A DNA stretch of 64,000 nucleotides from Candidatus Moraniibacteriota bacterium (GTDB taxonomy: Bacteria > Patescibacteriota > Minisyncoccia > Moranbacterales > UBA2206). Position 1 is the stretch's first letter; each line of letters opens with the position of its first letter. This document shows, piece by piece, positions 13,840-53,546 of this stretch. The DNA is taken from NCBI GenBank assembly GCA_030645735.1, contig JAUSNP010000004.1:10739-74738 (forward strand). Direction: 5' to 3'. The notes beneath the pieces were generated by a model that was not told the DNA's origin, searched no databases, and saw only the letters and a list, made by a program, of their open reading frames with translations. The position numbers were made by a program, and so were the translations under genes.

Positions 13840-13957
13840 GTTTTGGCGGCGTCCTACTTTTCCTAGACTGATGCCTAGATATCATCGGGGCTGAAATGCT
13901 TAACTGCCGAGTTCGGAATGGGATCGGGTGTTGCCATTTCGCTAGAACCACCAAAAC
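13840..13957 (-). rRNA. rrf: 5S rRNA
   Basis: The reverse complement reads GTTTTGGTGGTTCTAGCG...CCGAACTCGGCAGTTAAGC...GGACGCCGCCAAAAC. It has terminal helix I pairing and conserved 5S loop motifs. Confidence 0.85.
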
Positions 13958-14394
13958 AATGCTCTTTTTTCGCAGTCCGTAAAGTCCCAAGTCCGTAAAG
14001 TTTTTAAAGTCACATACTTTATGGACTTTTGACTTTATAGCCTTTCGACTCTAGAACGCGTTTATAACTGGTGCAAAAAACAAAAATGAAAAGATCGCAA
14101 TCGCAATTACAGAGAAGATGATGAAGATAAACTTCAAGCTTTCTCCGTATTTTTTAGAATACGATTTCATATTATTATTGTCCATTGTAAATATACTAAT
14201 ACAACTATTTATTCAGTAGATCTTGTGCACTCAGTTGAATTTCGCCATAAGCAAACTTCAACCGAGATAGTTTAGAAACTATTAACCACTAACCCACGCA
14301 TAACGCGTAACGCATATCGTGAAACATATATGAAATACGTTCTACGATTTGCGCTCTACGATCTGCGATTTATTTAAATTTAAGAGTGTAATTT

Positions 14395-17570
<3,176 letters not shown>

Positions 17571-35128: not shown

Positions 35129-35140
35129 ACTGATAAAATT

Positions 35141-35290
35141 ACAAATTCAAAATTACAAATATCAAACAAATTCAAAATTACAATTTTCAAAATTCAAAAC
35201 AATTTTGAATTTCAATTTTTGGTTATTGTGATTTATTTGGAATTTGAGATTTTGAATTTTGGATTTAACAAATTATAAATTTTTAAAAAA
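35141..35290. repeat. Intergenic palindromic repeat element, about 130-150 bp, copy 1 (MITE/REP-like)
   Basis: It shares the blocks caaaattacaattttcaaaattcaaaa and ttggttattgt(g/a)(a/g)tttatttggaatttgagattttg(a/g)atttt with 51233-51362. The two halves are roughly reverse-complementary. Confidence 0.7.
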
Positions 35291-35667: not shown

Positions 35668-35897
35668 AGAAGTTTAATTGTTTTTTTATTTTACTTTTTT
35701 AATTATACAGCATTTCAAATATTTTGGCAAAGGCTTAAATAAAGCAAAAACAGTCCGCCAAGACGAACTGTTTTTGATATGCGGGAAGGACAGTTGATAG
35801 GTGGGAACATGTTTCCAAGGCTGGTGACTGGCATTTTGGAGAATTGGGATAGGATTGAGGTGAAAGTGGAAAGGATGGAGACTTTGATGAAGGGTTG

Positions 35898-36113
35898 CTA
35901 GTTACTAGCCTTGTCTTGCGTTTGTTTCATCTTTGCTAGAGCGCCATTTATAAACACCATTCCGAGCCTACTAAGCTTATCCATATGTAATTCAGCCTCA
36001 TCCTCGGTGATTTTCTTGCCGGAGCGTTCGAATATGAGATTCTGACACTTCTTGATTAGCTCATTTGAATATGTGCGACTTGGTTGTTCTTCTCTTTTTA
36101 AGTTTGTCATATT
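35898..36113 (-). CDS. Small protein of the paralogous ELIKKCQ..IFERSGKKIT.DEAE family, copy 1
   Basis: The start is chosen at the internal Met (MTNLKREEQPSRTYSNELIKKCQNLIFERSGKKITEDEAELHMDKL...) by alignment with copy 2. It is followed by an intrinsic-terminator-like hairpin at about 35740-35770. Confidence 0.5.
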   Translation of the reverse strand, partial: NMTNLKREEQPSRTYSNELIKKCQNLIFERSGKKITEDEAELHMDKLSRLGMVFINGALAKMKQTQDKASN

Positions 36114-36192
36114 CTTTGTGATGATAGTGAAAACAAATTGACCACACTCTTTATTATGCAACAATTGAATAAAAAAATTTTACTTTTTTTAT

Positions 36193-36642
36193 CTAAATTA
36201 TATTTAGATAGACAAAAAATAAAACACTTATAAGATTCACGAATAACAACGCCGTCATAACAAAAGTTTGAATTTCGATAAATTTCGATTGCCATGCCTT
36301 TCCTCCAAATGGGCCAACTAGATGTTTTCCAGTTTCTCTTGCGTGTTTAGTATAAACTTCGGCTGATTCTCGAGTAATTAAAAAATAAAAGAGATTTTCC
36401 AATAAAGCCGCCAAAACAATTAAAACAGCGGTGAGAATTATGATAAAAAAGAAAACTTTCTTGTAATTTGTATCAAGAGACACTGATGTTGAAAGAAAGA
36501 AAAGCCCCGATGTAACAGGCGTGTATATTGTCAAAAGAAGTTTTGAAAATATCCTTCTTTCTTTATCTGTTTCATTAATCAGTTTGTTAAACACCCGCAT
36601 GATTGTTAGTTCATCATTTGGATCTAATTTATCGGTATCCAT
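36193..36642 (-). CDS. Integral membrane protein, hypothetical, downstream partner of copy 2 of the small protein family
   Basis: A 149-aa ORF with three hydrophobic helices. It lies 21 nt from the preceding gene. Confidence 0.45.
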   Translation of the reverse strand: MDTDKLDPNDELTIMRVFNKLINETDKERRIFSKLLLTIYTPVTSGLFFLSTSVSLDTNYKKVFFFIIILTAVLIVLAALLENLFYFLITRESAEVYTKHARETGKHLVGPFGGKAWQSKFIEIQTFVMTALLFVNLISVLFFVYLNII

Positions 36643-36663
36643 TTCGGTTAATAACTAAATTTA

Positions 36664-36855
36664 TTATTTCTTTTTTACTTGTTCCTCTTGATCCAAAACT
36701 TTCACCGCCAGCATGAAATAGCGCGCAAATTTTTCGAGATATAATTCGGCCTTGTCCTTAGTGATTTTTTTGCCGGAGCGTTCAAATATGATCCGCTGGC
36801 ACTTTTTAATCAATTCACTCGAGAATGTGCGTTTTGGCTGATTTTCTTTTATCAT
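36664..36855 (-). CDS. Small protein of the ELIKKCQ..IFERSGKKIT family, copy 2
   Basis: MIKENQPKRTFSSELIKKCQRIIFERSGKKITKDKAELYLEKFARYF.... Identity to copy 1 is clear. Confidence 0.55.
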   Translation of the reverse strand: MIKENQPKRTFSSELIKKCQRIIFERSGKKITKDKAELYLEKFARYFMLAVKVLDQEEQVKKK

Positions 36856-36921
36856 ATTATTTGCCTTGTTGCAAAAACAAATCGCTGTTGTGCTTATTAT
36901 GCGATAGAGCGATTAAAAAAA

Positions 36922-37221
36922 TTACTTTTTTCCAGATTCCAAATTTTGTTCGGCTGGCGAAAGACCACCGGCGGCTTTATGCGGAAAATAATTCCAAGCG
37001 TCTGTGACAAGCTCCAAAACATTGCCCAATTCTGAGGCATCGCCACCACGGTCAAACATCGCCACGACATGCATAAAATCATCCTGCTCTTCTTCGTTGA
37101 AAATCGCATCTTTGATATCTCGCAATTCAAAATCACTTTCAGTTTCTTCAAGCATTTCCAAAATCTCGCTTTCAATTTCTTTGCGCCTTTCTAAAATTTC
37201 TTCTTTTGTTTCAGTTTCCAT
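36922..37221 (-). CDS. Acidic small cytoplasmic protein, hypothetical, 5 nt downstream of the serine protease gene
   Basis: A 99-aa ORF rich in E/D (MFDRGGDASELGNVLELVTDAWNYF). It overlaps an alternative-frame ORF that is judged spurious. Confidence 0.45.
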   Translation of the reverse strand: METETKEEILERRKEIESEILEMLEETESDFELRDIKDAIFNEEEQDDFMHVVAMFDRGGDASELGNVLELVTDAWNYFPHKAAGGLSPAEQNLESGKK

Positions 37222-37226
37222 ATTTT

Positions 37227-38102
37227 TTATTTTTCAGATCCAACATCTTGAACTTTTGCCTCCTCGGTTTTTTGAGGTAGAGGAATTTTGTCAATAATTT
37301 CAAATATTAATTCGATAGGCACAACTCTTACTAATCCAGTTTGTTCTGTAAATATTATTCTAGGCTCACCAGTCTGCTGACTAATAGCAACATCAGAATA
37401 ATTTTCTCCTGAACTAACAACGCCTATTAATCCTGCGGAAGGATTACTTTGGGTGCCAGCAATTGCTAGCAATTCCGGTTTATGGATAACTGGGCCTCCA
37501 CTATTTCCGGGATAAGCCGAAGCATCGATATAGAAAAAACCTTCCCCCAATACTTCTTCATCAACTCTAGCTATTATTCCTTGTCTAACAATAACAAAAT
37601 TTCTTGCTTTACCACTTATACGCATTGGAAATCCAAGTACAAACAATCCATCGCCGGTTGAAATATTTTTTGTTGCAAAATCTTTAGCATAAAATAACTC
37701 TTCCCCAACAAAAAAATCGTAATTTATTTTTGCCTCGTCTATTGCAGTAGCGTTAATTGGAAGCACCGCCAAATCAACTCTTTCATCTTCGTGCATTAAC
37801 CAGAGAGGACAACCATCACTCTTTAATAAATTCACTTTGAAATAATGACTTTTATTATCCAAAGTGTTAAATCTAAAAAATACCTCCTTGAGAAATTCCT
37901 TTGTTTTTTTATTCTGATATACATGCCTATTTGTCACAATAAACAACCTGAAGAGGGCGCCTCCTTCATTACTTTTGCCTGTTGGTTTTCCCACCAAAAA
38001 ACCCGTTGCAATTGAGTTTTTTTGCAACAATCCATTATTATCTTTACTCTCAACTTCAATTGATACAACTGAGTTTAAATAATGTGGTGGTATTAATGAC
38101 AT
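37227..38102 (-). CDS. Trypsin-like (S1/chymotrypsin fold) serine protease with no signal peptide, sitting within the R-M operon
   Basis: His (..TNRHVY..), Asp (..RVDLAVLPI..) and Ser (..GNSGGPV..) triad motifs appear in canonical order. The gene is co-directional with res and lies 6 nt downstream of it. Confidence 0.7.
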   Translation of the reverse strand: MSLIPPHYLNSVVSIEVESKDNNGLLQKNSIATGFLVGKPTGKSNEGGALFRLFIVTNRHVYQNKKTKEFLKEVFFRFNTLDNKSHYFKVNLLKSDGCPLWLMHEDERVDLAVLPINATAIDEAKINYDFFVGEELFYAKDFATKNISTGDGLFVLGFPMRISGKARNFVIVRQGIIARVDEEVLGEGFFYIDASAYPGNSGGPVIHKPELLAIAGTQSNPSAGLIGVVSSGENYSDVAISQQTGEPRIIFTEQTGLVRVVPIELIFEIIDKIPLPQKTEEAKVQDVGSEK

Positions 38103-38108
38103 AAGATT

Positions 38109-40784
38109 TTATTTTTTAAATGCACCTACTAACTGCATAAAGCTTGTCGGCTTATATTTATCCCATTCCTCCTGCTTAACATAAAGCATTTTATATTCAA
38201 TTTTCTTTTGTCTTTCACTGGCATCCTCGCACCATTGTGCCAATCTTTTTATTTTTTCAATATCATCCAAATCTTCCCGTCCTTTTGTTTCGATAATATA
38301 GATTGTTTTGTTATCTGTCTTCACAAAAAAGTCTGGGTAATAACTGGAAATTGCACCGCTCGCATTTTTGTAATCAATCTTGAAATGAATTTCAAAGTAA
38401 TTTTTTGCGAAAGAAAGCACATCTTCAGCACCTTCCAAGAAGTCCGCAAATTCAAGCTCGAAATCACTGTCGCCGACAATTTTATTAAATACGCTCTTTT
38501 TGGGCAATAAATATTTTTTATCAGTTACCACAAATGGTCGCGCGCTACTAATTTTGAGATAATTTTTTATTTCCGTATCACCAACATCCTGCACAGTCAA
38601 ATTGTTTATCTCTTTTTTAAAGGTTTCGACAATAGTTTTTACCGCCTCTAATTCGGATAAGTTTCGCAAAATATTTGCGTCATTAAGATTCACTTCTTCA
38701 TTAAATAGATGCGCGTTGATAAATTCTTTCACTTTGCCAAAAAGAATGTCATAGCAACCAAAGAGACGGAGTTCTTTCATTATTCTTTGCACAAAAAATC
38801 CAATCACACTTTGGTAATTTGGCTCAATGGAGCTATTCAAAATTGTTGTGTGATGTTCTTTGTCATCAATAACTTCCTTAAAAACAATCTCTTTCTTTTC
38901 TTCCTCGGAAAACTGCTTAACTGAAATTTTTTCATGTTTGAAAGTAGCAATATTCAATAGATTGAGATTTTTGTATTCCCTCTGGATTCTCGGTGTCAGA
39001 ACCGGCAGTTCAATGTCCAAATTTTCAATATCTTTTTTTACATTTTCATGATCGACTTCAATGACTGTGGGAGTGATTGGAGAACCGCTTCGATCCATTC
39101 TTCTTTTTTCCAATTCAACACCTTCTGCCTTGATTGATTCAACAAACTCCATAAAAGCAGGTGTTCCAATGATACTCACATACTCTTCCACATCTTGTCC
39201 AAAAAACATTCGGCGAAGACCACGACCGAGTGTCTGCTCTGGCAAAATTTTTGAATCAGAACCATAAGGACGGAGTCCAACGATTGTTGTCACATTTTTT
39301 ACATCCCAACCCTCTTTGAGCATCAAGACAGAAACAATGACTTTATATGGGCTTTCCATGCTATCAATATCATTGGCCTTTTTCCTGAGTTCTTGCAATT
39401 CTTTTTCTTTTTTGCCAGTTGTCGTTTCAGATATCTCACCACTTCTATTTGTGTGAATTGTCAGAACCGCACCTTTCAATTGTGGATAGCTATTTTCCAA
39501 AAATTCCGCCACATCATCACAATTCGTTGTATCATCAGTCATTATAAAAAGAATCGATTTTTTTCCTGTTGGCAATAATTCTGTATATATCTTTTCCCAT
39601 TCTTCCACGCCCAGTCGAATAAAGTCTTCGTATTTTTCAGAAAATATTGAACTTTGTTTTTCTTGCAGTTTTGCCCGACTGGCAGAATCCGGCAAGACCG
39701 GATTTTTCACTACGCCTTGATGGATAGCTTCAACCAGCGGATAGTCAGAAACAGTCTGCACAAAAATCTCGCCACGATTATTTTTTGGTGTCGCAGTCAC
39801 ATCGATTTGCAAAGCTAGTTTTTTACCCTTTTGTAATAATCGATTATGAATATCTTCGATTGATTTAAACCATGCCATTTTTGGATCATGAATGTGATGA
39901 GCTTCGTCATTAATAACCATCAACTCATCAACGTCGCGCACGATTTCTCCTAAATCAATTTTTGAATCATTAGTCTTTCCAGTAACCTTACTGCCCATAA
40001 AATAATCTGACGTGTCCTCATCTTCAAAACTAGCTTCAGATATATCGCCTTCATAAACTCTATGTATATTAGTCAGAAAAATATTTCCCGATTTTGAAAT
40101 TGTGCCAACCTCATCTTGCAAATGCAGTTTTATTTGAAAATCATCTTGCCAATTTTGTCCGGCAAATCCATTATCAGGCAAAATCGGATCATCATGAAAT
40201 ATTTTCAATCCTTCAAAATCAGCCTTGATTCGATCCAAAACGATGATATTTGGCGTGATGAGTAAGAAATTTTTAGATAGTTCAGAATCTTCTTCATAAA
40301 GCTTGTGAAAATATGACCAAGCTAATAGCAAACTCATAACTTTTGTTTTTCCACTTCCAGTCGCCATCTTTATCACAAAACGAAGCCAATCCTCATTGAA
40401 CATATTCGGACTAACACGACCCAATTTATCAAACTTTATCAAATCATATTTGTTGGAAACTTTTTCAACATCATAGAGCCAGATAATTGTTTCCACTGCC
40501 TCTCTTTGAGCATAATAATATTGAAAGGAAACGCTTGTTCCGTCTTTGGCAAAAATGGTGTGTGGCTCAAGAAACCACCAATTCAAAAGAGCCTTGGAAG
40601 TTTCGCTTGCTCCGTCATAATTATTCTTTCGCCACTCCGCAACTTGCTCACGCAATTCTGGAACAAAAGGAGGCAAAAGCTTTTCAAAACCCTCTCTTCG
40701 CAAATCTTCTTCGGCCGGAAACCACCTGATTGCCGGATCAAGGATTTGAAATTTATCTTTTGGAAAATCTTTGTGTAATGCCAT
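38109..40784 (-). CDS. res: Type III restriction enzyme Res subunit (SF2 helicase plus a C-terminal PD-(D/E)xK-like nuclease)
   Basis: Walker A is ..MATGSGKTKVM... DEAH box is ..VINDEAHHI... A helicase C-terminal region follows. The C-terminal ..YYPDFFV...YIIETKGRE.. motif is nuclease-like. Confidence 0.85.
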   Translation of the reverse strand: MALHKDFPKDKFQILDPAIRWFPAEEDLRREGFEKLLPPFVPELREQVAEWRKNNYDGASETSKALLNWWFLEPHTIFAKDGTSVSFQYYYAQREAVETIIWLYDVEKVSNKYDLIKFDKLGRVSPNMFNEDWLRFVIKMATGSGKTKVMSLLLAWSYFHKLYEEDSELSKNFLLITPNIIVLDRIKADFEGLKIFHDDPILPDNGFAGQNWQDDFQIKLHLQDEVGTISKSGNIFLTNIHRVYEGDISEASFEDEDTSDYFMGSKVTGKTNDSKIDLGEIVRDVDELMVINDEAHHIHDPKMAWFKSIEDIHNRLLQKGKKLALQIDVTATPKNNRGEIFVQTVSDYPLVEAIHQGVVKNPVLPDSASRAKLQEKQSSIFSEKYEDFIRLGVEEWEKIYTELLPTGKKSILFIMTDDTTNCDDVAEFLENSYPQLKGAVLTIHTNRSGEISETTTGKKEKELQELRKKANDIDSMESPYKVIVSVLMLKEGWDVKNVTTIVGLRPYGSDSKILPEQTLGRGLRRMFFGQDVEEYVSIIGTPAFMEFVESIKAEGVELEKRRMDRSGSPITPTVIEVDHENVKKDIENLDIELPVLTPRIQREYKNLNLLNIATFKHEKISVKQFSEEEKKEIVFKEVIDDKEHHTTILNSSIEPNYQSVIGFFVQRIMKELRLFGCYDILFGKVKEFINAHLFNEEVNLNDANILRNLSELEAVKTIVETFKKEINNLTVQDVGDTEIKNYLKISSARPFVVTDKKYLLPKKSVFNKIVGDSDFELEFADFLEGAEDVLSFAKNYFEIHFKIDYKNASGAISSYYPDFFVKTDNKTIYIIETKGREDLDDIEKIKRLAQWCEDASERQKKIEYKMLYVKQEEWDKYKPTSFMQLVGAFKK

Positions 40785-40788
40785 ATAA

Positions 40789-41145
40789 CTATTTCTTTTT
40801 TATTAGCTCCTGAATTTGTTTTTGCTGTTCCAATATTAACTGTTGATTTTTTTGATTTTGATCAAGAAGTTCCTGGTTAATCTTCTGTGATTGTTCAACA
40901 GATCCGGTTTTTTCTGAATATTCCTTATAGATGGCTGAATTTATATGAAAAGAATCAATAATCAATGTTGACACCATCACTAATAAAATTATAACAACAC
41001 TAAGTAAGATATAGTTTATATCTTTAAATTTAGAATCGGCTTCTTTTTTAACATCTTCCACCGTAACAGAGCCACCAGTTTCTGGTATTTTAATTTGGAT
41101 TTCACCAAGTTCAGATTTTTCAAATTGCACTTGTTCCTTTTCCAT
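40789..41145 (-). CDS. Small single-pass membrane protein with a Q-rich coiled-coil C-terminus, inserted between mod and res
   Basis: A 118-aa ORF with a central TM helix (ILLSVVIILLVMVSTLII) and ...QELLDQNQKNQQLILEQQKQIQELIKKK. Confidence 0.4.
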   Translation of the reverse strand: MEKEQVQFEKSELGEIQIKIPETGGSVTVEDVKKEADSKFKDINYILLSVVIILLVMVSTLIIDSFHINSAIYKEYSEKTGSVEQSQKINQELLDQNQKNQQLILEQQKQIQELIKKK

Positions 41146-41148
41146 AAA

Positions 41149-41367
41149 TTAAAAAATACCCTTAATTACAAGAACGCCAGACTCCTCCTCAACAGCAAAA
41201 TCTCTTCCAACAAATTGAGCAAGATCTATCCCACTAAAAGACACTCCTCTACCAAATCTAACACCTGGGCCCATTTGCACGCCACCAATTCTAACCAAGC
41301 GAAGAGGCTCAATGCTTCCATCTGTATCTACTTTAAATATTTGATAAAAATTAATTCTTTGAATCAT
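41149..41367 (-). CDS. Small Gly-rich hypothetical protein between mod and res
   Basis: A 72-aa ORF with a 4-nt overlap or spacing to its neighbours. No motif was recognised. Confidence 0.3.
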   Translation of the reverse strand: MIQRINFYQIFKVDTDGSIEPLRLVRIGGVQMGPGVRFGRGVSFSGIDLAQFVGRDFAVEEESGVLVIKGIF

Positions 41368-41371
41368 TAAT

Positions 41372-43534
41372 TTATATATTTATCTCAATTACTTTGGTCG
41401 TATCGTTTCCAAAAATATCAATCACCTTGATTGCGATTTTCATTTTGCCTTTGGACACTTCCTTGAAAACTGAAATCAATTCAAGAGATCTGTCTTTTTT
41501 GGTTCTGAATGATTGCCACTCATTTTCAAAAATATAATTTCCAGTCCATTTTTCTTCAAAGTCGCCTATCTCCATTTGTACAGCATCAGACGATCCATCA
41601 AGTTTTTGCTGAACAGTTTTTTCTTTCGGCACTCTGATAATTTCTTTTTTGCTTTCAAAATCAAAATCCACCGACCAATAATCAATCCAGTCAGTCCATT
41701 TTTTTGTCAAAGTTTCACGCTCAATAATATCCGTATTTTTATCCTTGGAAATCTTTATGACTTGACCGTTTTCAATGACAATCTTGTTTCCACCGGATTT
41801 CAATTTTTCCTCCACTTCTCCAGTATTGTCTTGATTATAGAAAACGGAGAAATCAGTTATCTCAATAGCAACTTCTTTGGCGTTGCCTCGTCCGCGGATA
41901 ATTGGTTTAACTTCAATATAGGCAATGTCATAAAATTTCACCTGTCCTTTTTCAACCGCTTTTTTATCAAACACTTCACGCGGAATAACCTTAAATTGCA
42001 CATCAATACCCAGTTTTTTTGCTTGCTCAAAGTCCAGTCCCATTTCATAGTCAAATCCCAAAACATCAGCTTTAGTTATTTTATTCTCCCGACATTCAGT
42101 GATTATTTTTTCCAGAAAATCATTTGTAATTGGCGTATCAATTGATCCGACTGCAATCAGCCTATCTCTTTTCTTACCGACAAATGAATTGAATGAATCA
42201 ATTGGCTCAGCCTTGTAGGCAGAAAGAATGAGTTTGATAAATTCTTTTTCTTTATTCACCCTTTGAATTCTTTTTTCTTCGTCACGCAAATTTTCATTCA
42301 CAGTCAAAAACTTCTCTCTTTCATATTTTCCAATATTTAAAATTTCAAATGCTCGAAAATTTTTACCAACTTTCTTCAATTCTCTTTGCACCCCAATCAT
42401 TCTCTTGCGAGTGGTATGGACAGAAAAACGACCTAAATCAGAACCAATCCATTTTCGATTTAGCTTTTCTGCAACCGCCAAAGTTGTGCCTGAGCCACAG
42501 AAAAAATCAGCAACAAGATCACCTTCATTGGAAGAGGCGCTTATTATTCTTCTGAGCAGTGACTCTGGTTTCTGGGTTGGATAAGCAATGTGTTCAGGAA
42601 GTGCATTAAAAACCTGTCCGATATTATTTTCTTTTCTATCTAGCCAAGTCCAAACATCATCCGCTTTTCTCCCTTCATCTGCATAATATCTTGTAGCATT
42701 ATTATTTCCAGACATTCTATACTTTCTACCATCCTCATCAACAAGAGGATAAATACTTTCATTCTTTACAAGCAAACGCACTTGATTAAATTTTACTGAT
42801 TTTTTATTTTTAGCAAAAGAAATTATATAATCATGCTTTTTAGCAAAGCCTTTTATTGGCGCTGTACCAGCCTGATAATGCCAAATTATTTGATTCAAAA
42901 AATTTTCCTTTCCAAAAATTTCATCTAGAATTAAGCGCATATAACTATTCAATCTCCAATCACAATGCACATAAACACTACCATCATCCGCCAAAAGACC
43001 GTGCATCAACTTTAGCCTTTCATAAATCATCGCTATAAAACTATCGGCGCCTTTGCCCCAGGTGTCGCGGTAGGCAATTTCTTCAATCACCGACGGTTTT
43101 TTGGTGAAAGTATCTTCGCCAATTTCAATATTCATCGAAAAATCCGCGCCCACATCAAATGGAGGATCGATATAAATCAATTTCAATCCACCCTCAGCTT
43201 CAATTTGTTTTCGAAGTGGTCCATTCTTGAGCGATGACAAAATCAATTTATTGTCACCCCAAATTAGCTTGTTTGACCAGCCTTTCATTTGCCGGCCAGA
43301 AGTGTCAAAAAGAGAAGTTTGCGCGGTTATTTTTTCCTCACTCCGTGGTTCATCAATATGCTCAATCGTCTGAAATGGCAAAACTATATTTTCCGTTTCA
43401 TCAGTTTTTCCATTCCATAAAAGCTCAACCTCCCGATCGGTGTCAAAAAGCAAAAAGCGGTATTTCTCCGGCAATGACTTGCCAGATTCCAAATACTTTA
43501 TTACATCTCGTTTTTCATTCTCAGTTAGCTTCAT
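41372..43534 (-). CDS. mod: Type III R-M Mod subunit (N6-adenine/N4-cytosine beta-class DNA methyltransferase)
   Basis: Motif IV (..LIYIDPPFDVGADF..) precedes motif I (..DFFCGSGTTLAVA..). The protein is 720 aa and lies upstream of res in the same orientation. Confidence 0.85.
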   Translation of the reverse strand: MKLTENEKRDVIKYLESGKSLPEKYRFLLFDTDREVELLWNGKTDETENIVLPFQTIEHIDEPRSEEKITAQTSLFDTSGRQMKGWSNKLIWGDNKLILSSLKNGPLRKQIEAEGGLKLIYIDPPFDVGADFSMNIEIGEDTFTKKPSVIEEIAYRDTWGKGADSFIAMIYERLKLMHGLLADDGSVYVHCDWRLNSYMRLILDEIFGKENFLNQIIWHYQAGTAPIKGFAKKHDYIISFAKNKKSVKFNQVRLLVKNESIYPLVDEDGRKYRMSGNNNATRYYADEGRKADDVWTWLDRKENNIGQVFNALPEHIAYPTQKPESLLRRIISASSNEGDLVADFFCGSGTTLAVAEKLNRKWIGSDLGRFSVHTTRKRMIGVQRELKKVGKNFRAFEILNIGKYEREKFLTVNENLRDEEKRIQRVNKEKEFIKLILSAYKAEPIDSFNSFVGKKRDRLIAVGSIDTPITNDFLEKIITECRENKITKADVLGFDYEMGLDFEQAKKLGIDVQFKVIPREVFDKKAVEKGQVKFYDIAYIEVKPIIRGRGNAKEVAIEITDFSVFYNQDNTGEVEEKLKSGGNKIVIENGQVIKISKDKNTDIIERETLTKKWTDWIDYWSVDFDFESKKEIIRVPKEKTVQQKLDGSSDAVQMEIGDFEEKWTGNYIFENEWQSFRTKKDRSLELISVFKEVSKGKMKIAIKVIDIFGNDTTKVIEINI

Positions 43535-43571
43535 ATCTTATTGAAACACAAAGGGTTTTTTAGCTATTCTT

Positions 43572-44561
43572 ATGGTATCATTAAGTAAGGGTTTATTCAA
43601 GACAGATGAAATGAGCAGGATTTCAAATACAAATAGCACAGGAGGATTGGAAATAGATCGCCTAATGGGCGACGATTTTCTTTTTCTCCTCCTTATTCTG
43701 ATTGACTACCCAGAAAAAAATCCCGGCATCCTTGATCCAGCTCCGTTTGGAAAATTTAGATTCAAAAATTTGCAGTGGAAGTATTGTATTGAATTTATAC
43801 TGTTTCTCAAAAATTGTGCTGGCATAAAAGTCACACGAACAAACCAAGACCTTCCCGAAGTTGAAGTTTTTGAGGAATCGATTGAAATTATTCAAAATGG
43901 CATAAATAATTATTTGGAAAAATTCATCTCTGGCGAACTTATCCCCATTGATAAAAATTATTTAAATTTTGAAAAACAGAAAAAATATTTTCTAGAGAAA
44001 ATAAAAACTAAGCTTGAAAATGAAACATCTAAAACGCTTTTTCTTTCTGACAATGAAATTGAAAATGAATATGATTTTTTTGAAAGCATGTTGGCTTTGG
44101 AAAGGCAAAAATATTTAAAAATAAAAAGTGTCACCAATTCCCAAAAGCCAGAAAGCTCTGATTTTTATAAAATAGTTTTTACAATACGATCAAAATTTCA
44201 CAAAAAAGTTAGCGTGCAAAACAAAAAAGTTAGAAGGCTTTCCGTTAAATGCTTTTCAAAAGGAAACTTGGGCTATTTTCGCGTGAAAAAAGAATCCAAA
44301 GAAAAAATCATCGGAAAGGCTAATTCCAGGCCGTTTTTATTATTACAATTTTTAGTCAATCAAGGCATTGGCGAAATAGTATCGTTCCAAAAAGCTTTCA
44401 AGGCCATCAAAGACGGCAAACATTATAAAACAACCTCCCACCTTGTGGATGAAGAATTGGCCGCTCTTATAAATGCTAGGAAAGTTCTGCAGAAAGAGAG
44501 AAAAATACACCCCTTCAAACTAATTATCGGCAAAAAAGACCGCACAATCCGAATGCAATAA
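43572..44561 (+). CDS. Hypothetical protein, about 300 aa, lysine-rich, in the mobile-element-like module. The start is uncertain.
   Basis: A long plus-strand ORF. No catalytic motif was recognised. The C-terminal region is helix-rich. Confidence 0.45.
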   Translation: MVSLSKGLFKTDEMSRISNTNSTGGLEIDRLMGDDFLFLLLILIDYPEKNPGILDPAPFGKFRFKNLQWKYCIEFILFLKNCAGIKVTRTNQDLPEVEVFEESIEIIQNGINNYLEKFISGELIPIDKNYLNFEKQKKYFLEKIKTKLENETSKTLFLSDNEIENEYDFFESMLALERQKYLKIKSVTNSQKPESSDFYKIVFTIRSKFHKKVSVQNKKVRRLSVKCFSKGNLGYFRVKKESKEKIIGKANSRPFLLLQFLVNQGIGEIVSFQKAFKAIKDGKHYKTTSHLVDEELAALINARKVLQKERKIHPFKLIIGKKDRTIRMQ

Positions 44562-44698
44562 ATTAAAATCATTTTATTGATTTTGGAAAAAACAGAGAAT
44601 TCACTCTGTTTTTTCGTTTGAATAAACGAAAAAGTTCAACAGCCAATTCTCTCGTGGCTTGTTTTCTTGACGGCGTGGGGAGCGTTTTATGTAATGCA

Positions 44699-44896
44699 GT
44701 CATGCAAGAACAATTTTCACCACACCTCATAGAAAAATGCCAAAAGCTCGTTTTCAAGCGAGCTGGGGTTCACATCACCGAAGATCAAGCAGGGAGGTGC
44801 TTGGAAAAATTGGCGCGTTTGGCTAAACTGGCTTTCGAGACTCTTGTGGAAAATAAACATAATGCAAAACCCGATGGAAAGAATAATCACAATTGA
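44699..44896 (+). CDS. Small protein of the ELIKKCQ family, copy 3 (..PHLIEKCQKLVFKRAGVHITEDQAGRCLEKLARL..)
   Basis: The start is placed at the internal Met by alignment with copies 1 and 2. Confidence 0.5.
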   Translation, partial: VMQEQFSPHLIEKCQKLVFKRAGVHITEDQAGRCLEKLARLAKLAFETLVENKHNAKPDGKNNHN

Positions 44897-45173
44897 TAAA
44901 AATGCCCGCTTAAAAATCATTTGCGGAAGCATAATGTTGCAATATAGGAAAAAATCCAAAACAAAGCAAATAGCGTGGCACACAGACGGCCATTTCTCAG
45001 ATTATGCATCAATGGCAGAACATTACATTTCCAACGCGCCATACCGCGCTATTGAAGGCACAGCGTCAATAGAAAAGCTGATTGAAGTCGTCCAGCAGTC
45101 GAGCGACCAAATCAGCCGAGTTTTGAAAAATAATCAATTAAATGGAAAATCACATGGAAAATCAAACCGATGA
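44862..45173 (+). CDS. Hypothetical small protein
   Basis: An ORF of about 100 aa that overlaps the end of the preceding gene, with a start at an internal Met. Confidence 0.35.
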   Translation: MQNPMERIITIDKNARLKIICGSIMLQYRKKSKTKQIAWHTDGHFSDYASMAEHYISNAPYRAIEGTASIEKLIEVVQQSSDQISRVLKNNQLNGKSHGKSNR

Positions 45174-45375
45174 GACTACGAATGAAGAATTCAATCAAAT
45201 ACCAGCTGGTGAGAAACTCTGCCCGCTCATGAATGGATTCTACAAGGGCATTCCTTGCACTTCAGATTGTGCCCTGTATCGTGAGGGTAAGAATGAAAAT
45301 GCATGTGCTTTGCATGAACTGAGATCGATCAGTTGGTTCATGAAGCAGAGCCAGGACAAAAAGCCCATTGATTAA
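45142..45375 (+). CDS. Small Cys-motif protein (LCPL...C..DC family), copy a
   Basis: A 77-aa ORF containing ...EKLCPLMNGFYKGIPCTSDCALY...C.... Confidence 0.45.
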   Translation: MENHMENQTDETTNEEFNQIPAGEKLCPLMNGFYKGIPCTSDCALYREGKNENACALHELRSISWFMKQSQDKKPID

Positions 45376-45416
45376 ATCAATGGGCTTAAAAAAATAATTA
45401 TTAACTACACAATCAA

Positions 45417-45662
45417 ATGGCTATGGTCAAGATTGAGGGCTTCCTCAAAAAGCTGGAAAAATTGCCGTTGAGCGAGCTATGCCCGCTCATCGACAATGTG
45501 AAGTGGAACTGCGGAAAATTAGACAAAGGCAATGAGCCATGCTGTCATAATACCTATAAATATATGAACTGTCCGCATTTCAAAAAATGGTTCTATTGGA
45601 ATGTGACCCGGATGGTTGCCAAAGAAATCGCCAAACTGGAAATTAGTCAAAAGAAAAAGTAA
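45417..45662 (+). CDS. Small Cys-motif protein (LCPL...C..CC..C family), copy b, a paralog of 45142-45375
   Basis: An 81-aa ORF containing ...SELCPLIDNVKWNCGKLDKGNEPCCHNTYKYMNCPHF.... Confidence 0.45.
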   Translation: MAMVKIEGFLKKLEKLPLSELCPLIDNVKWNCGKLDKGNEPCCHNTYKYMNCPHFKKWFYWNVTRMVAKEIAKLEISQKKK

Positions 45663-45702
45663 CCAAAAAGAAATGTAAATAATACTTACTTACTAAAGGT
45701 AC

Positions 45703-45744
45703 AGTAACTAGTAAGTAAGTATGGTTTTAAAAACTTTTTCTTTG
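45703..45744. promoter_or_regulatory. 14-bp perfect inverted repeat hairpin (atacttacttacta / tagtaagtaagtat) directly after the Cys-protein gene. It may be a terminator or a recombination/operator site.
   Basis: Read from the sequence. It is followed by GGTTTT. Confidence 0.5.
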
Positions 45745-46856
45745 AGAAATCTCTCTAACTGAAAAACTGAAACGACCTAAAAATCCCTCTGTCGCGCGAA
45801 AAATGCTACGCTATGCACATTTAAAAGGCTCGGATAAGCCAAAGTTATGGGAATTAAAAATGACGGTGATCCGCCGCGCGCTGGCAACGAACCACTGACT
45901 TGAAAAAATGCACAAATCTTGGCAGAGGCGCAGCGGAAAGGGCGCCAGAGGACAAAAAAATTGGAGCAATCTTTGAGAAGACGCATTTTTGCCGGAACAA
46001 TGACGGCCATCCGGAATTGGACGGAAAAATGCAAGCGACGAGAAGTTGAAACGATTTTGTTTGGCCTCGGGTTCGCACTCCCCTCGCCTTGGGGCGAGGG
46101 GTTGGGGGTGTGGGGAAATCCAAAGTGCGGAAAAGGATTGATGTCCTACAACGGGCATTCTTGCGACACCCCTTTTTTCTCAAAAATCGGGGAAAGCTTG
46201 GACACGATTTTTGCAAGAAAAAAGAGCGTGTTCGCAAAATGCCTCGTTGTGGGAGGGTGAGAAAAAGACAGTCCTTTAGTTTTCAAAGTGAAGTTTTTTT
46301 CGAATCCCCTTGCGTCAATCCTTTTCCTTCCTTGCGGGGAAAGAGATTGAGAAGACCGCCAAGGTTTTCTCACTACTAAAGCAGTTTGACCGCAACCTTT
46401 ATAAATTGTGCAGGATGAAACAGTGGCATTGGAAAAGTCTGATTAGATATTTGGCAGTCTGGAATTTTCGCCGCGAAAAGTTCCAGTCTGCCAAATTCCT
46501 TGAATGAAAACATTTTCCAAGGACACTGTTTCTTTCTGCTTTCCTTTTTGATTGGTTGCGGGAAAACTACCCTTATTTTAGGGGGTTATCCATAGAATAA
46601 AAATATGTTATTATACATATGGACACAAATTAATATTCATCAGAACACAATCGGTGCGATTTTTTTTCGTATCGAGAAAAGGGCGACTTTCGCTTCAAGT
46701 TCTGATGAAGAATTTGTGTCCAGCGAGGTCGTCCTTTTGTTTGGGCGAAAAACAAAAAAATTATGGACACAAACTTATTACTCAGCGATTCACCGGCAGA
46801 CTTGCCAACCATATTGATGTTTTTTGGAACATTTATTTTTATAATTTTTATGGAAT

Positions 46857-48443
46857 ATGGAAACGATAAAAACAAAAACAAATAAACCAAAATTTGTCAT
46901 CTATGCCCGTAAGTCATCAGAAGACAATAGCAAACAAGTGCATTCGATTGATGCGCAGATTTTTGTCATGAAAGACATTGCCAAACATGAAGGCATTCAG
47001 ATTGTGGAAATCTTTCAAGAATCAAAATCCGCCAAAGAACCTGGGCGGCCGGTTTTCAACAAGATGATCGAGCAATTCAAGAAAAACAAATATGATGGCA
47101 TTCTCTGCTGGAAAATTGACCGCTTGGCGAGAAATCCGGTGGACGCCGGAATTGTGCAATGGCTTTTGCAGAAAAATTCCATCCAGCAGATTATCACCAG
47201 CGACCGAAAATATAATCCGGAAGATAATGTCATTATTGCCAGCGTAGAATTCGGAATGTCGAATCAGTATATTTTGGATTTGTCTAAAAATGTGAAACGC
47301 GGTTTGGCGGAGAAAGTTCGGCGCGGAGAATATCCCGGGCCGGTGCCACTCGGATATTTGCGAGATTTCAAAACTAAAAAGATTATCCTAGATCCTGACA
47401 AAGCGCACTATATCAAACGAGCCTACCAACTTTATTCAACTGGCCTTTATTCTATCGACCAGCTCACGGAAAAACTGAACAATGAAGGCTTGCGCTCTTT
47501 GCACAGCCAAAGAGTCCAGCCATCAATTATTGGGCGCATGCTGAATAATCCAATTTATTATGGCTGGTTTGAATGGAAGGGCCAACTTTGCCCGGGCAAG
47601 CACGCGCCAATCATCTCCAAGGACATTTTTGACAAGGTGGACGAGATAATGTTTCCGCAGAGGGTTATGAAACGGAAAGATAAGCGAAAGTTCACTTTTC
47701 GCGGCCTTTTGCGTTGCGGTGAGTGTGGGTTGAAGATAACCGCGGAGGTGCGGAAAGGCCACACCTATTATCGTTGCACGAAATCCAGAGGCACCAACAA
47801 ATGCTCCCAAAGATATGTGCGTGAAGAGGCTCTGGACGAAGAAATCAACCGCAAGCTATCTGAGCTCAACTTTGATCCGGAAGTGACTGAGCTGGCCATT
47901 TTGGCGCTCAAAGACCAAAACAGAAACCAACTGCAACAGCAAATTGAAATCCAAAGAAAGAACGAGGAACTGCTCCGCAAGAACCGAGAATCGCAAGACA
48001 TCCTCGTCAATCGCTTTTTGGACAATCTCGTGCCAGAGGATATTTATAATCGCCGGCTGACAGGCTTGCGCAACGATGAAGCACGGTTGGATGAAATAAT
48101 CCAAAACACCAAAGACAACACACGCAACGCTTTTGATAAGATTGAAACGATTGTGCGCTTTTCCCAATTAGCCAATGAAATATTTACAAATGGAACTCCG
48201 GTAGCGAAGAAAGAAGTGGCTGGCATAATATCTTCGGACATCACTTTGAAAGATAGAAAAATCCTTGATTTTAGCCTTGATGTTGAATTTCAATGGATGA
48301 TAGATGATATGAATGACTCGTTTGCCCTAAACCACAAAATTGCAATCTTGGAACCAGTCACTTTAGCTTTAGAAAAAGCAAAAGCAGGCATTGAGTTGCC
48401 TGCTAAAAGCGTTGTGCGGGGCTGGCCGGACTCGAACCGGTGA
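46857..48443 (+). CDS. Large serine recombinase (phage-integrase type). It has a resolvase catalytic domain, a recombinase domain and a zinc-ribbon domain.
   Basis: The N-terminus is ..FVIYARKSSEDNSKQVHSIDAQ.. with the catalytic Ser motif, followed by ..ILCWKIDRLARN... The zinc ribbon is ..CGECGLKIT...YYRCTK..C.. and a long coiled coil follows. The last roughly 25 nt of the ORF overlap the 3' end of tRNA-Asp. Confidence 0.9.
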   Translation: METIKTKTNKPKFVIYARKSSEDNSKQVHSIDAQIFVMKDIAKHEGIQIVEIFQESKSAKEPGRPVFNKMIEQFKKNKYDGILCWKIDRLARNPVDAGIVQWLLQKNSIQQIITSDRKYNPEDNVIIASVEFGMSNQYILDLSKNVKRGLAEKVRRGEYPGPVPLGYLRDFKTKKIILDPDKAHYIKRAYQLYSTGLYSIDQLTEKLNNEGLRSLHSQRVQPSIIGRMLNNPIYYGWFEWKGQLCPGKHAPIISKDIFDKVDEIMFPQRVMKRKDKRKFTFRGLLRCGECGLKITAEVRKGHTYYRCTKSRGTNKCSQRYVREEALDEEINRKLSELNFDPEVTELAILALKDQNRNQLQQQIEIQRKNEELLRKNRESQDILVNRFLDNLVPEDIYNRRLTGLRNDEARLDEIIQNTKDNTRNAFDKIETIVRFSQLANEIFTNGTPVAKKEVAGIISSDITLKDRKILDFSLDVEFQWMIDDMNDSFALNHKIAILEPVTLALEKAKAGIELPAKSVVRGWPDSNR

Positions 48444-48490
48444 CCTACTGCGTGACAGGCAGTCGCTCTAACCAACTGAGCTACAGCCCC
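48417..48490 (-). tRNA. tRNA-Asp (anticodon GTC)
   Basis: The reverse complement is GGGGCTGTAGCTCAGTTGGTTAGAGCGACTGCCTGTCACGCAGTAGGTCACCGGTTCGAGTCCGGCCAGCCCC plus a discriminator. The cloverleaf and the anticodon loop CTGTCAC were checked by eye. Confidence 0.8.
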
Positions 48491-48513
48491 ATTTGTCTAT
48501 TCTATTTTTAACT

Positions 48514-48576
48514 TTGCGTAACCTACTGCGTGGCAGTCCCGAGTACTCGGGATCTGACCAACTGAGCTACAGCCCC
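48514..48576 (-). pseudogene. Truncated pseudo-tRNA-Asp fragment. It comprises the 5' acceptor and D arm, an 18-nt palindrome, and an anticodon-stem remnant, and has no T arm.
   Basis: The reverse complement is GGGGCTGTAGCTCAGTTGGTCAGA-tcccgagtactcggga-CTGCCACGCAGTAGGTTACGCAA. It duplicates the 5' half of the adjacent tRNA-Asp. Confidence 0.5.
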
Positions 48577-48604
48577 ATAATTTGTCTATTTTATTTTCAA
48601 CCCG

Positions 48605-48844: not shown

Positions 48845-49378
48845 TCAATCAAATATTTGATATACACGCAAAAATTCCTCAAAATGATTCAGAGCATGTT
48901 CAGCGTCCTCCTTGCTCAATTCCAAACTGTCATCATGTATAATCCTGTTTCGCAGTTCATGCGCCTCTTTCATCCCCTCCACATTTTCAATTTGACCATC
49001 TGGGATGCCATCCAATCGCTCAGCAAAATTGTCACCTTTATATCCCATCCTAGTTATCAAATCATCAATAAAAGTGTCTGCTTCAATGATTGCAATCTTA
49101 TAATCTGATTCATTGCCAACCTCTATTTTTTGTCGAATCTGTTGCCAAGTCTTTCTGGTTTTTTTCTTGTTAGTTGTTAGTTCACGCGGGATATTCATTC
49201 CAGTCACTGTCTCTCTCAGGTTGCCACTCAAACCTCTTTGCACCAAAAGCAAGATAATATCCACAAAAAGTATGATTGTATAAACACCCGCCAAAAATTT
49301 TATCACTGACAAAGCGCCTGAGTGATAAAGCTTAATTGCGTCAGCATATATAGTTGTCGCCAGCATTTCTACATCCAT
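48845..49378 (-). CDS. Hypothetical protein with one N-terminal TM helix
   Basis: A 177-aa ORF. Confidence 0.45.
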   Translation of the reverse strand: MDVEMLATTIYADAIKLYHSGALSVIKFLAGVYTIILFVDIILLLVQRGLSGNLRETVTGMNIPRELTTNKKKTRKTWQQIRQKIEVGNESDYKIAIIEADTFIDDLITRMGYKGDNFAERLDGIPDGQIENVEGMKEAHELRNRIIHDDSLELSKEDAEHALNHFEEFLRVYQIFD

Positions 49379-51230: not shown

Positions 51231-51232
51231 AA

Positions 51233-51362
51233 ATTACAAATTCAAAATTACAAGCTCCAAATAAATTCAAAATTACAATTTTCAAAATTCAAAATAGTTT
51301 TGGATTTTAGATTTTGGTTATTGTAGTTTATTTGGAATTTGAGATTTTGGATTTTAGATTTA
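51233..51362. repeat. Intergenic palindromic repeat element, copy 2, homologous to 35141-35290
   Basis: Near-identical blocks aaattcaaaattacaattttcaaaattcaaaa and ttggttattgtagtttatttggaatttgagattttggattttagattt. Confidence 0.7.
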
Positions 51363-51368
51363 AAATTA

Positions 51369-53546
<2,178 letters not shown>

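Follow-up and report, generated by a model that had tools for sequence, protein, structure and literature searches.

Large serine recombinases such as SPbeta SprA and those of phiC31, Bxb1 and A118 are three-domain enzymes that act on short att sites with minimal identity, the half-sites of attP being offset outward by ~5 bp relative to those of attB. According to the Islander paper, only tyrosine integrases were known to target tRNA genes, and integrases that reach across attP exist (Mx8, SSV; PMC4383910). Of 297 serine-integrase islands, Mageeney et al. placed 14 at t(m)RNA genes, and called them previously unreported and in need of proof (PMC7192596). Here we analyzed a 64,000-nt stretch of contig JAUSNP010000004.1 from a Candidatus Moraniibacteriota bacterium (hereafter the window). 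Positions 35786–48420 of the window are very probably a 12.6-kb non-phage integrative island, inserted by its large serine recombinase at the extreme 3′ end of a tRNA-Asp gene, with attP lying inside the integrase gene; we put the probability of this reading at about 85%. The island integrase has the same three domains as the SPbeta, phiC31, Bxb1 and A118 enzymes but differs in targeting a tRNA gene and in having attP inside its open reading frame (ORF). The island is further set apart by a putative antisense replacement terminator for the tRNA and by a ~1-kb RNA and a membrane microprotein gene in front of the integrase gene.

An attP within the integrase coding sequence has been described for the IntP/IntX integrase of myxophage Mx8, for which integration creates a new int 3′ end, a changed C-terminus and altered behaviour (PMC6070905, PMC4383910). 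SSV-type archaeal integrases likewise have the site within the integrase ORF and a tRNA as target, and their gene is partitioned on integration (PMC7253208, PMC8371274). The Mx8 enzyme is an unrelated tyrosine integrase of a 50-kb phage, whereas here a serine-family enzyme resides on a 12.6-kb cargo island; the archaeal SSV gene, also of the tyrosine family, is split into two inactive parts, whereas here only about 38 C-terminal codons are lost. The Mx8 attB is also located in a tRNA-Asp gene. The island integrase resembles both in that attP lies within the coding sequence and the gene is altered by integration, but it does not have the tyrosine recombinase fold; the likeness is functional, not homologous. 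Among serine enzymes, phiRSM has a small recombinase that integrates at a tRNA (cited in PMC7192596) and is without the recombinase and zinc-ribbon domains, both of which the island integrase has. A large serine recombinase is also carried by 27 of 937 tycheposon-type elements at tRNA genes (bioRxiv 10.1101/2020.12.28.424599). For these elements partial tRNA copies are described at the flanks, and the text consulted reports no ORF-spanning attP. In a literature survey of incomplete coverage, which leaves a prior description possible, we found no account of a serine integrase ORF spanning attP, of this clade or of its RNA. The integrase family is large and apparently undescribed: a tRNA-targeting clade of serine integrases that have attP in their gene and are accompanied by a replacement terminator and a large structured RNA.

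In the integrated state, the integrase gene (46857–48443, plus strand) encodes 528 residues with Pfam matches to Resolvase (PF00239, E = 2.6e-20, residues 14–158), Recombinase (PF07508, 9e-17) and Zn_ribbon_recom (PF13408, 1e-11). The protein has the features of a serine integrase, namely a resolvase-type catalytic domain with a nucleophilic serine, followed by the Recombinase domain and then the zinc ribbon. Y16, R18, K19 and S20 in the catalytic region are invariant across 34 homologues, as are the zinc-ribbon residues C287, C290 and C307, with C316 nearly so. The nearest solved relative is the SPbeta integrase (9dxh, E = 1e-9), to which the alignment reaches residue 421. These domains and residues agree with a preliminary description, made from the window's letters, of a complete 528-aa serine recombinase with catalytic serine, recombinase domain and zinc ribbon. 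The overlap with tRNA-Asp on the opposite strand, given there as roughly 25 nt, measures 28 nt: the final part of the ORF (48416–48443) is antisense to the 3′ part of an intact tRNA-Asp(GTC) gene (48416–48490, minus strand; ARAGORN and Rfam), which is the integration target and the B arm of attL. The last 8 codons and the stop lie beyond the core, in the host tRNA antisense. Two tRNA-Met genes stand upstream of tRNA-Asp. The island integrase may well catalyse both integration and excision, for which the empty site and the reconstructed junctions described below give indirect support.

The empty site was found in L166, a close relative in which tRNA-Asp is followed by a terminator hairpin, the gene for a 123-aa membrane protein and gyrB without any insertion (gene order LigA-GatC-GatA-177aa-tRNAMet-tRNAMet-tRNAAsp-terminator-mem123-GyrB). 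L166 came from homologues of gyrB, the first host gene on the far side, and the far junction was located solely through it; a GatA-based metagenome scan yielded no syntenic relatives. Between L166 and the window, GatA is 83% and GyrB 86% identical, and virtual excision of 35786–48420 gives a sequence that aligns colinearly with L166 across the junction. With the limits fixed by L166, the island is 12.6 kb long, and a 6-bp core bounds both ends. The L166 host proteins are nearer to those of the window than are the proteins of two further relatives, L083 and L084 (GatA 83% versus 74%), both of which have the same host genes as the window on the tRNA side (tRNA-Met twice, a 177-aa HEPN-like protein, GatA, GatC and LigA). 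L083 carries an integrase 83% identical to that of the window at the same tRNA-Asp, with type III restriction-modification (R-M), DUF87 and PDDEXK genes as cargo. In L084 (10001–11041), also at this tRNA-Asp, the integrase is N-terminally truncated without a catalytic domain and adjoins a type I R-M system with a RhuM gene; L084 is a decayed island of the same family with its cargo exchanged. The integrase (83%) is better conserved between the window and L083 than host GatA (74%) and LigA (56%), which suggests recent movement. GC content is 0.33–0.38 across 35–45 kb compared with ~0.41 in the flanks, and GC skew reverses over 44–48 kb.

The preliminary description had proposed one acquired island with defence cargo at about 35.9–48.5 kb, anchored as an integrative element at the tRNA-Asp 3′ end and driven by the large serine recombinase. 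L166 upholds this proposal and gives ~35786–48420 as the limits. The comparison with relatives and the composition shift that the description had named as checks both came out in its favour, L166 having the empty site, L083 and L084 carrying other R-M cargo, and GC content and skew changing over the island region. The locus shows the intact tRNA at one end and the empty site in a relative that belong to an Islander-type signature. It shows neither a displaced tRNA 3′ fragment of tens of nucleotides at the far end, where 6 nt are shared (17 nt in L008), nor a tyrosine-family integrase, the sole recombinase being of the serine family.

Junction comparison identified the attR core TGCGGG at 35780–35785 (plus strand; CCCGCA on the tRNA strand) and the attL core TGCGGG at 48415–48420 (plus strand), the latter comprising the last acceptor-stem bases, the discriminator and 1 nt past the called tRNA. 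TGCGGG is the sole sequence common to attL, attR and attB; crossover takes place within this 6-bp core, and no tRNA sequence beyond it is duplicated. On one side the host attB comprises the T-arm and the acceptor end of the tRNA, and on the other the native terminator of that tRNA. Because the junctions share 6 bp and attP lies inside the ORF, the 28 nt of tRNA under the ORF are host DNA and not an element copy. The classic arrangement with an element-borne copy of 20–45 nt of the tRNA end, as first described, does not hold here. The second tRNA-Asp 3′ copy anticipated at the far att site is likewise absent: searches of the window with 16–40-mers allowing up to 3 mismatches found no copy of at least 16 nt, and the far junction shares 6 nt. 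The attB junction reads …GATATGCGGGGCTGGCCGG… and the reconstructed attP junction …AAAAGCGTTGTGCGGGAAGGACAGTTG…. The four elements for which both junctions are available all have a TCGAAC-like motif, corresponding to the tRNA T-loop, 11–17 nt from the core in the B arm, and a counterpart (TCGAAC, TCGGAC, TGTAAC or GGGAAC) 16–23 nt from the core in the P arm, 5–6 bp further out. Rutherford et al. reportedly described in 2013 a ~5-bp offset between the attB and attP half-sites of serine integrases. The sites reconstructed here, with small cores of 6–17 bp and an attP half-site offset of ~5 bp in the right-hand arms, conform to this type. The host B′ arm and the element P′ arm are both terminator-like hairpins set in A/T-rich sequence. 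Most loci also have, within the integrase ORF and ~60 nt downstream from the target tRNA, a GGTTCGAAGG/GGTTCTAACC-like box that encodes the peptide F/L-E-P (~48345–48356 in the window). It is kept in near and distant clades and is T-loop-like, and it stands too distant from the core for a usual half-site.

When joined at the core, 46857–48420 and 35786–35901 form an in-frame ORF of 559 aa, 38 codons longer, that ends in …KSVV(R)EGQLIGGNMFPRLVTGILENWDRIEVKVERMETLMKGC. The segment 35786–35901 (plus strand) represents an orphan integrase 3′ end, with the last 38 codons and the stop, and also the P arm of attR. Its product matches the C-terminus of P0036 (42% over 31 aa, E = 4e-4) and resembles the C-termini of P0036 and P0063, two homologues without a tRNA-derived ending; the conserved tail motif is ILENW..ER..L. 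L226 and L227, unintegrated P0063 contigs from two samples, have the tail in full but no tRNA. In both, a convergent gene follows the tailed integrase and next, downstream of the tail, comes a homologue of the island's 63/88-aa protein, which is the order predicted for the circular form of the window's island. Integrated relatives of P0063 continue after …LLG with RRDSNP, and P0063 with IEDSF. Orphan tails were detected in four other loci, L005 (twice), L007, L008 and L022, on the integrase strand and 9–10 kb upstream of the integrase. A hidden Markov model of the tail matched those of L007, L022 and L005 at E-values of 1e-6 to 8e-5 with these loci outside the model. The tails of L007, L008 and L022 adjoin a 6–17 bp copy of the target-tRNA end (Trp, Asp and Val, respectively), are preceded by a host-type terminator and join the integrase in frame. 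Substitutions in the ILENWDRIEVRLER tail stretch number 18/6/36 at codon positions 1/2/3, and this third-position bias argues for selection at the protein level. The in-frame 559-aa join, the tailed unintegrated homologues and the orphan tails elsewhere together place attP within the integrase gene. In L005 the two orphan tails (17–193 and 1043–1132) stand at the far end of a single island with ~1 kb between them, which suggests tandem or successive integrations at the same tRNA.

The arrangement is family-wide in bacteria of the candidate phyla radiation (CPR) and some other phyla, and clades differ in their target tRNA. In species-representative genomes, the integrase stop lies within or next to a convergent tRNA 3′ end in 56 of 80 homologous loci, most of the others being cut by contig ends; the target tRNAs are Asp, Gln, Trp, Ser, His, Val, Tyr, Asn, Ile, Pro, Glu and Arg. 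Among the 120 closest homologues (45–83% identity), most terminate in peptides of the RDSNP, ESNPR or GFEP type, the translated antisense of the tRNA T-arm. The pattern [DE]S[ND][PLSR] occurs in the last 45 residues of 52/114 close homologues and 31/135 distant representatives, with fewer than 1 expected. Several distant representatives with D-x-[VIF]-R-T tails are read as probable unintegrated forms; this peptide results from the P-arm motif acting as a DNA-level constraint. The family comprises 2,292 clusters (50% identity) matching at E ≤ 1e-30, with hosts mostly in the Patescibacteria (CPR) and also in Omnitrophota, Margulisiibacteriota, Ignavibacterium and others.

Insertion pushed the native terminator of tRNA-Asp 12.6 kb away from the gene. 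The native hairpin (35746–35775, minus strand), which matches that of L166 with 2 mismatches, now forms the host side (B′ arm) of attR. A terminator scan predicted an element-supplied intrinsic terminator, consisting of the hairpin AGCAGGCAACTCAATGCCTGCT and a T-run (48373–48404, minus strand; part of the attL P′ arm), that starts 12 nt past tRNA-Asp and is antisense within the integrase 3′ coding region; the scan itself placed hairpin and T-run at 48404–48383. The same hairpin and T-run follow the target tRNA in nearly all close-clade members (20 loci under a strict rule, more by eye), compared with a control rate of 15/500 antisense windows within integrase ORFs. A conserved K-[TA]-K-[TA]-[AG] peptide in the integrases is due to the terminator T-run. 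By these predictions, the element-borne hairpin and T-run replace the tRNA terminator displaced by insertion.

A 1.2-kb ORF-poor stretch upstream of the integrase gene shows 72–91% nucleotide identity to elements whose integrases are ~50% identical in protein. Positions 45741–46742 of it (plus strand) form either a non-coding RNA of ~1 kb, conserved and structured, or a long structured leader of the integrase gene; at the end, a long 3′ hairpin is followed by TTTTGTTT. Matches to the RNA profile occur on the plus strand only and immediately upstream of the integrase, in 27 loci that all belong to the clade of at least 44% identity; none were obtained in ~85 control loci. The consensus of 12 sequences for the central block (46066–46390) has 65 pairs, 31 of them with compensatory changes, and 93% of cells are paired, as against 81% in shuffles (0/500) and 47–58% with slid partners. 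Many invariant U-G pairs assign the RNA to the integrase strand. Structure support comes from the central and 3′ blocks, the 5′ block (5′ third) giving a mixed-length alignment without a usable consensus structure. Rfam returned no match at gathering thresholds and, at E ≤ 1, only chance miRNA/small-RNA matches on short hairpins. Elsewhere the RNA was located at 2010–3419 in L225, 8611–10002 in L009 and 169–1376 in L226, among others. An internal repeat module (CAACGAAsCA…GCAGAGGCGyCAG…CAAGCGmCGAG) is duplicated in L225, L009 and L007, and partly in L006.

Between the RNA and the integrase gene, an ORF for a 40-aa single-pass membrane microprotein (MDTNLLLSDSPADLPTILMFFGTFIFIIFMEYGNDKNKNK; 46763–46885, plus strand) overlaps the integrase start codon. 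In 24 of the 26 loci examined, a comparable ORF either ends at the integrase start or overlaps it, and these ORFs fall into two sequence types. The RNA and the microprotein may control integrase expression. The sequence TGGACACAAA is present twice in direct and once in inverted orientation (AATTTGTGTCCA) at 46620–46631, 46712–46723 and 46764–46775, and the second direct copy holds the microprotein start codon. The inverted AATTTGTGTCCA could pair with either direct copy and might in this way form a translational switch.

Five ORFs upstream of the RNA (43572–45662, plus strand) encode proteins of 329 aa, 92 aa (a member of the small-protein family) and 99 aa, and two Cys-motif proteins of 77 and 81 aa. 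By tblastn, matches to these ORFs recur in many loci, upstream of the integrase and in a constant position relative to it, and none of the five, the 329-aa protein included, has a Pfam, PHROG or PADLOC match. The five small ORFs, the ~1-kb structured RNA, the 40-aa membrane microprotein and the integrase make up the conserved backbone. The small ORFs had been described at first as phage-like, but no PHROG match was found for any; they are instead backbone genes common to elements of the family. The two Cys-motif ORFs (45142–45375 and 45417–45662), previously called paralogous, are both present and each has homologues in other elements, while BLASTP detects no similarity between them. Further copies of the small family had been noted to the left, and the family indeed numbers three paralogues with 50–60% identity, at 35898–36164 (minus), 36664–36855 (minus) and 44618–44896 (plus).

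The minus strand carries the remaining genes of the island. Four small ORFs, either cargo or backbone (35898–37221), encode the 88-aa and 63-aa small-family members, a 149-aa membrane protein and a 99-aa acidic protein. They are followed by a trypsin-like peptidase (37227–38102), a candidate defence gene (Pfam Trypsin_2 9.5e-13; PADLOC PDC-S45 3e-24), and by an R-M block (38109–43534) composed of Res (38109–40784), two small ORFs and Mod (41372–43534). The block has Pfam matches to ResIII, RE_endonuc and N6_N4_Mtase and PADLOC matches to REase_III (9e-23) and MTase_III (9.5e-113). With a Mod methyltransferase and a Res helicase-nuclease in one operon, it is a type III system, and the early notion of an R-M block as defence cargo was correct.

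A truncated copy of the tRNA-Asp 5′ half had been placed beyond the tRNA at 48514–48576. This pseudo-tRNA-Asp 5′ part is present, at 48517–48577 (minus strand). Rather than an att duplication, it is a tandem copy of the upstream spacer and the tRNA 5′ two-thirds with an inserted GC hairpin. Compared with tRNA-Asp, the pseudo-part has 1 mismatch in its first 24 nt, the 16-nt hairpin TCCCGAGTACTCGGGA as an insertion behind the D arm and a 4-nt deletion in the anticodon loop, and the similarity stops at the variable loop. The same architecture and junction, with more hairpins, are found in L083 (11625–11745) and L084 (11110–11200), and the pseudo-tRNA is absent from the empty-site relative L166. 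Similar pseudo-5′ parts with hairpin insertions occur upstream of the target tRNA in L070, L072, L021, L034 and L029, the GC-rich insertions including TCCCGAGTACTCGGGA, TCCCGACAAAGTCGGGA, TCCGCCAGCCGGCGGA and others. A GIY-YIG ORF lies between the pseudo-part and the real tRNA in L070, where it is intact, and in L021, where it is frameshifted; in L083 a GIY-YIG gene stands beside tRNA-Met. Our best guess, offered only as a lead, is that the pseudo-5′ tRNA is the scar of a separate tRNA-targeting GIY-YIG cassette.

Several other features of the window were recorded. A 133-nt direct repeat (35136–35268 and 51231–51363, 89%) was considered as the island ends and rejected, as it falls outside the insertion defined by L166 and its core has a third copy. 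It belongs to an AT-rich dispersed intergenic repeat of ~133 nt in the gyrB–mem123 and gatC–ligA spacers, whose 23-nt core recurs at 51825–51847; Logan contigs break within this repeat, which is unrelated to the island ends. The host 177-aa protein beside the tRNA cluster (48845–49378, minus strand) has weak HEPN/DUF4145 similarity (E ~6e-3) and is kept in L166. The 23S rRNA gene (14382–17563) spans 3182 nt compared with a 2925-nt model and probably has an insertion; a 5S rRNA gene (13841–13955) is near it, and the window contains no 16S rRNA gene. Very large ORFs are located on the minus strand upstream of gyrB at 6285–10784 (1499 aa), 18281–24610 (2109 aa) and 24875–32218 (2447 aa).

In the free form, the integrase gene thus encodes the 559-aa protein with the conserved C-terminal tail. 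Integration leaves the tail-coding piece at the far end of the island and removes the last 38 codons from the gene, and the resident integrase then reads 8 codons into the antisense tRNA to give 528 aa. The long form may be the one that performs integration, and the truncated form may differ from it in activity, stability or directionality. A more specific proposal, which we consider doubtful, is that the tail swap is a built-in commitment or directionality switch. The circle would make a long enzyme competent for attP × attB, the resident short enzyme would be inactive, unstable or biased to attL × attR, and the RNA and microprotein would serve as further regulators or cofactors. If true, the state of the substrate would be written into the enzyme itself, and no classical directionality factor would be needed. 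Alternatively, the overlap of attP and ORF could be a matter of genome compaction only, with a dispensable tail and a swap that has no effect on activity or directionality, an explanation that is conceivable but short of probable. The antisense-tRNA residues vary freely in length and sequence (overlaps of 6 to ~255 nt), which implies that the integrated-state C-terminus itself is not selected, and the apparent peptide conservation is partly at the DNA level, KTKTA being the antisense-terminator T-run and D-x-[VIF]-R-T the TCGAAC-like P-arm motif. Compaction alone accounts poorly, however, for the tail motif ILENW..ER..L. This motif lies 27–51 nt or more past the core, outside the P-arm motif (which ends 21–23 nt from the core), and is kept among integrases ~50% identical with third-position-biased substitutions that indicate protein-level selection. 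Moreover, the equivalent change in the tyrosine integrase of Mx8 does alter its behaviour (PMC6070905).

The reading of the locus as an island with attP inside its integrase gene also has to be set against several observations. The source sample yielded neither an excised circle nor an empty site, and Logan contigs of SRR13727526 span attL and attR unbroken. The unintegrated contigs, with a length of 4.3 kb, are short, and they could not be shown to be circular, terminal overlaps sought in L225–L227 being absent; both junctions were reconstructed in only four integrated loci. The tail is present in only 2 of the 120 closest homologues. No match among the top 150 cluster representatives extended beyond residue 523/555 of P0063, hence no further tailed proteins, and a protein search with the reconstructed C-terminus gave no matches. 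The left (P′/B′) arms showed no conserved motif or convincing symmetry. The crossover dinucleotide is not pinned down, since the window junctions share 6 bp (17 bp in L008). No recombination directionality factor was identified, and the roles of the tail, RNA and microprotein are inference only. Some observations would fit a fixed remnant, inserted once by the integrase, now only a defence locus and with a decaying integrase gene: only the integrated state was assembled in the source sample, L084 has at the same site an integrase without the catalytic domain, and the window junctions share 6 bp only. We regard this as rather unlikely because the integrase is full-length with all invariant residues kept, the orphan tail is still an open frame with the conserved motif though not expressible when integrated, and the P-arm motif spacing is intact. 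The integrase is also better conserved than host proteins between the window and L083, suggesting recent movement, and the empty site is found in the closer relative, L166. A prophage or phage satellite is very improbable. The integrase does match PHROG 95 ('integrase') and the element sits at a tRNA, but its 12.6 kb hold no capsid, terminase, tail or lysis genes, nor any other virion or packaging gene, and the integrase has the only PHROG match. IMG/VR contains no close relatives by protein, only distant integrases (≤40% identity), and the RNA and tail DNA patterns are unmatched there. A boundary at the pseudo-tRNA 5′ half is hardly credible; in that case the element would have arrived with a complete tRNA-Asp of its own and broken the host gene at the variable loop. 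For it one could cite that the copy beside tRNA-Met keeps a host-like upstream spacer with the intact tRNA on the island side, and that all three island-bearing relatives have the pseudo-part, which the empty site lacks. The far junction, however, is without a T-arm or acceptor fragment, joining its sequence at the tRNA 3′ end prolongs the integrase ORF in frame, and the native terminator comes directly after the 6-bp core; similar pseudo-5′ parts beside other tRNAs border GIY-YIG genes, an indication of a different agent.

Serine integrases are prized tools of genome engineering and have been thought to avoid tRNA genes, whereas here a large natural clade targets tRNA 3′ ends. The clade is a source of integrases whose attB sites are predictable and universally conserved. 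The C-terminus of the integrase depends on whether the element is free or integrated, a possible form of self-regulation otherwise known only in the unrelated tyrosine integrases of Mx8 and SSV, and the arrangement makes directionality control of a serine integrase without a separate factor testable. The locus also brings to light a ~1-kb structured RNA without a known family. For the biology of CPR bacteria, whose mobile elements are poorly known, the island shows a route by which defence systems move between genomes.

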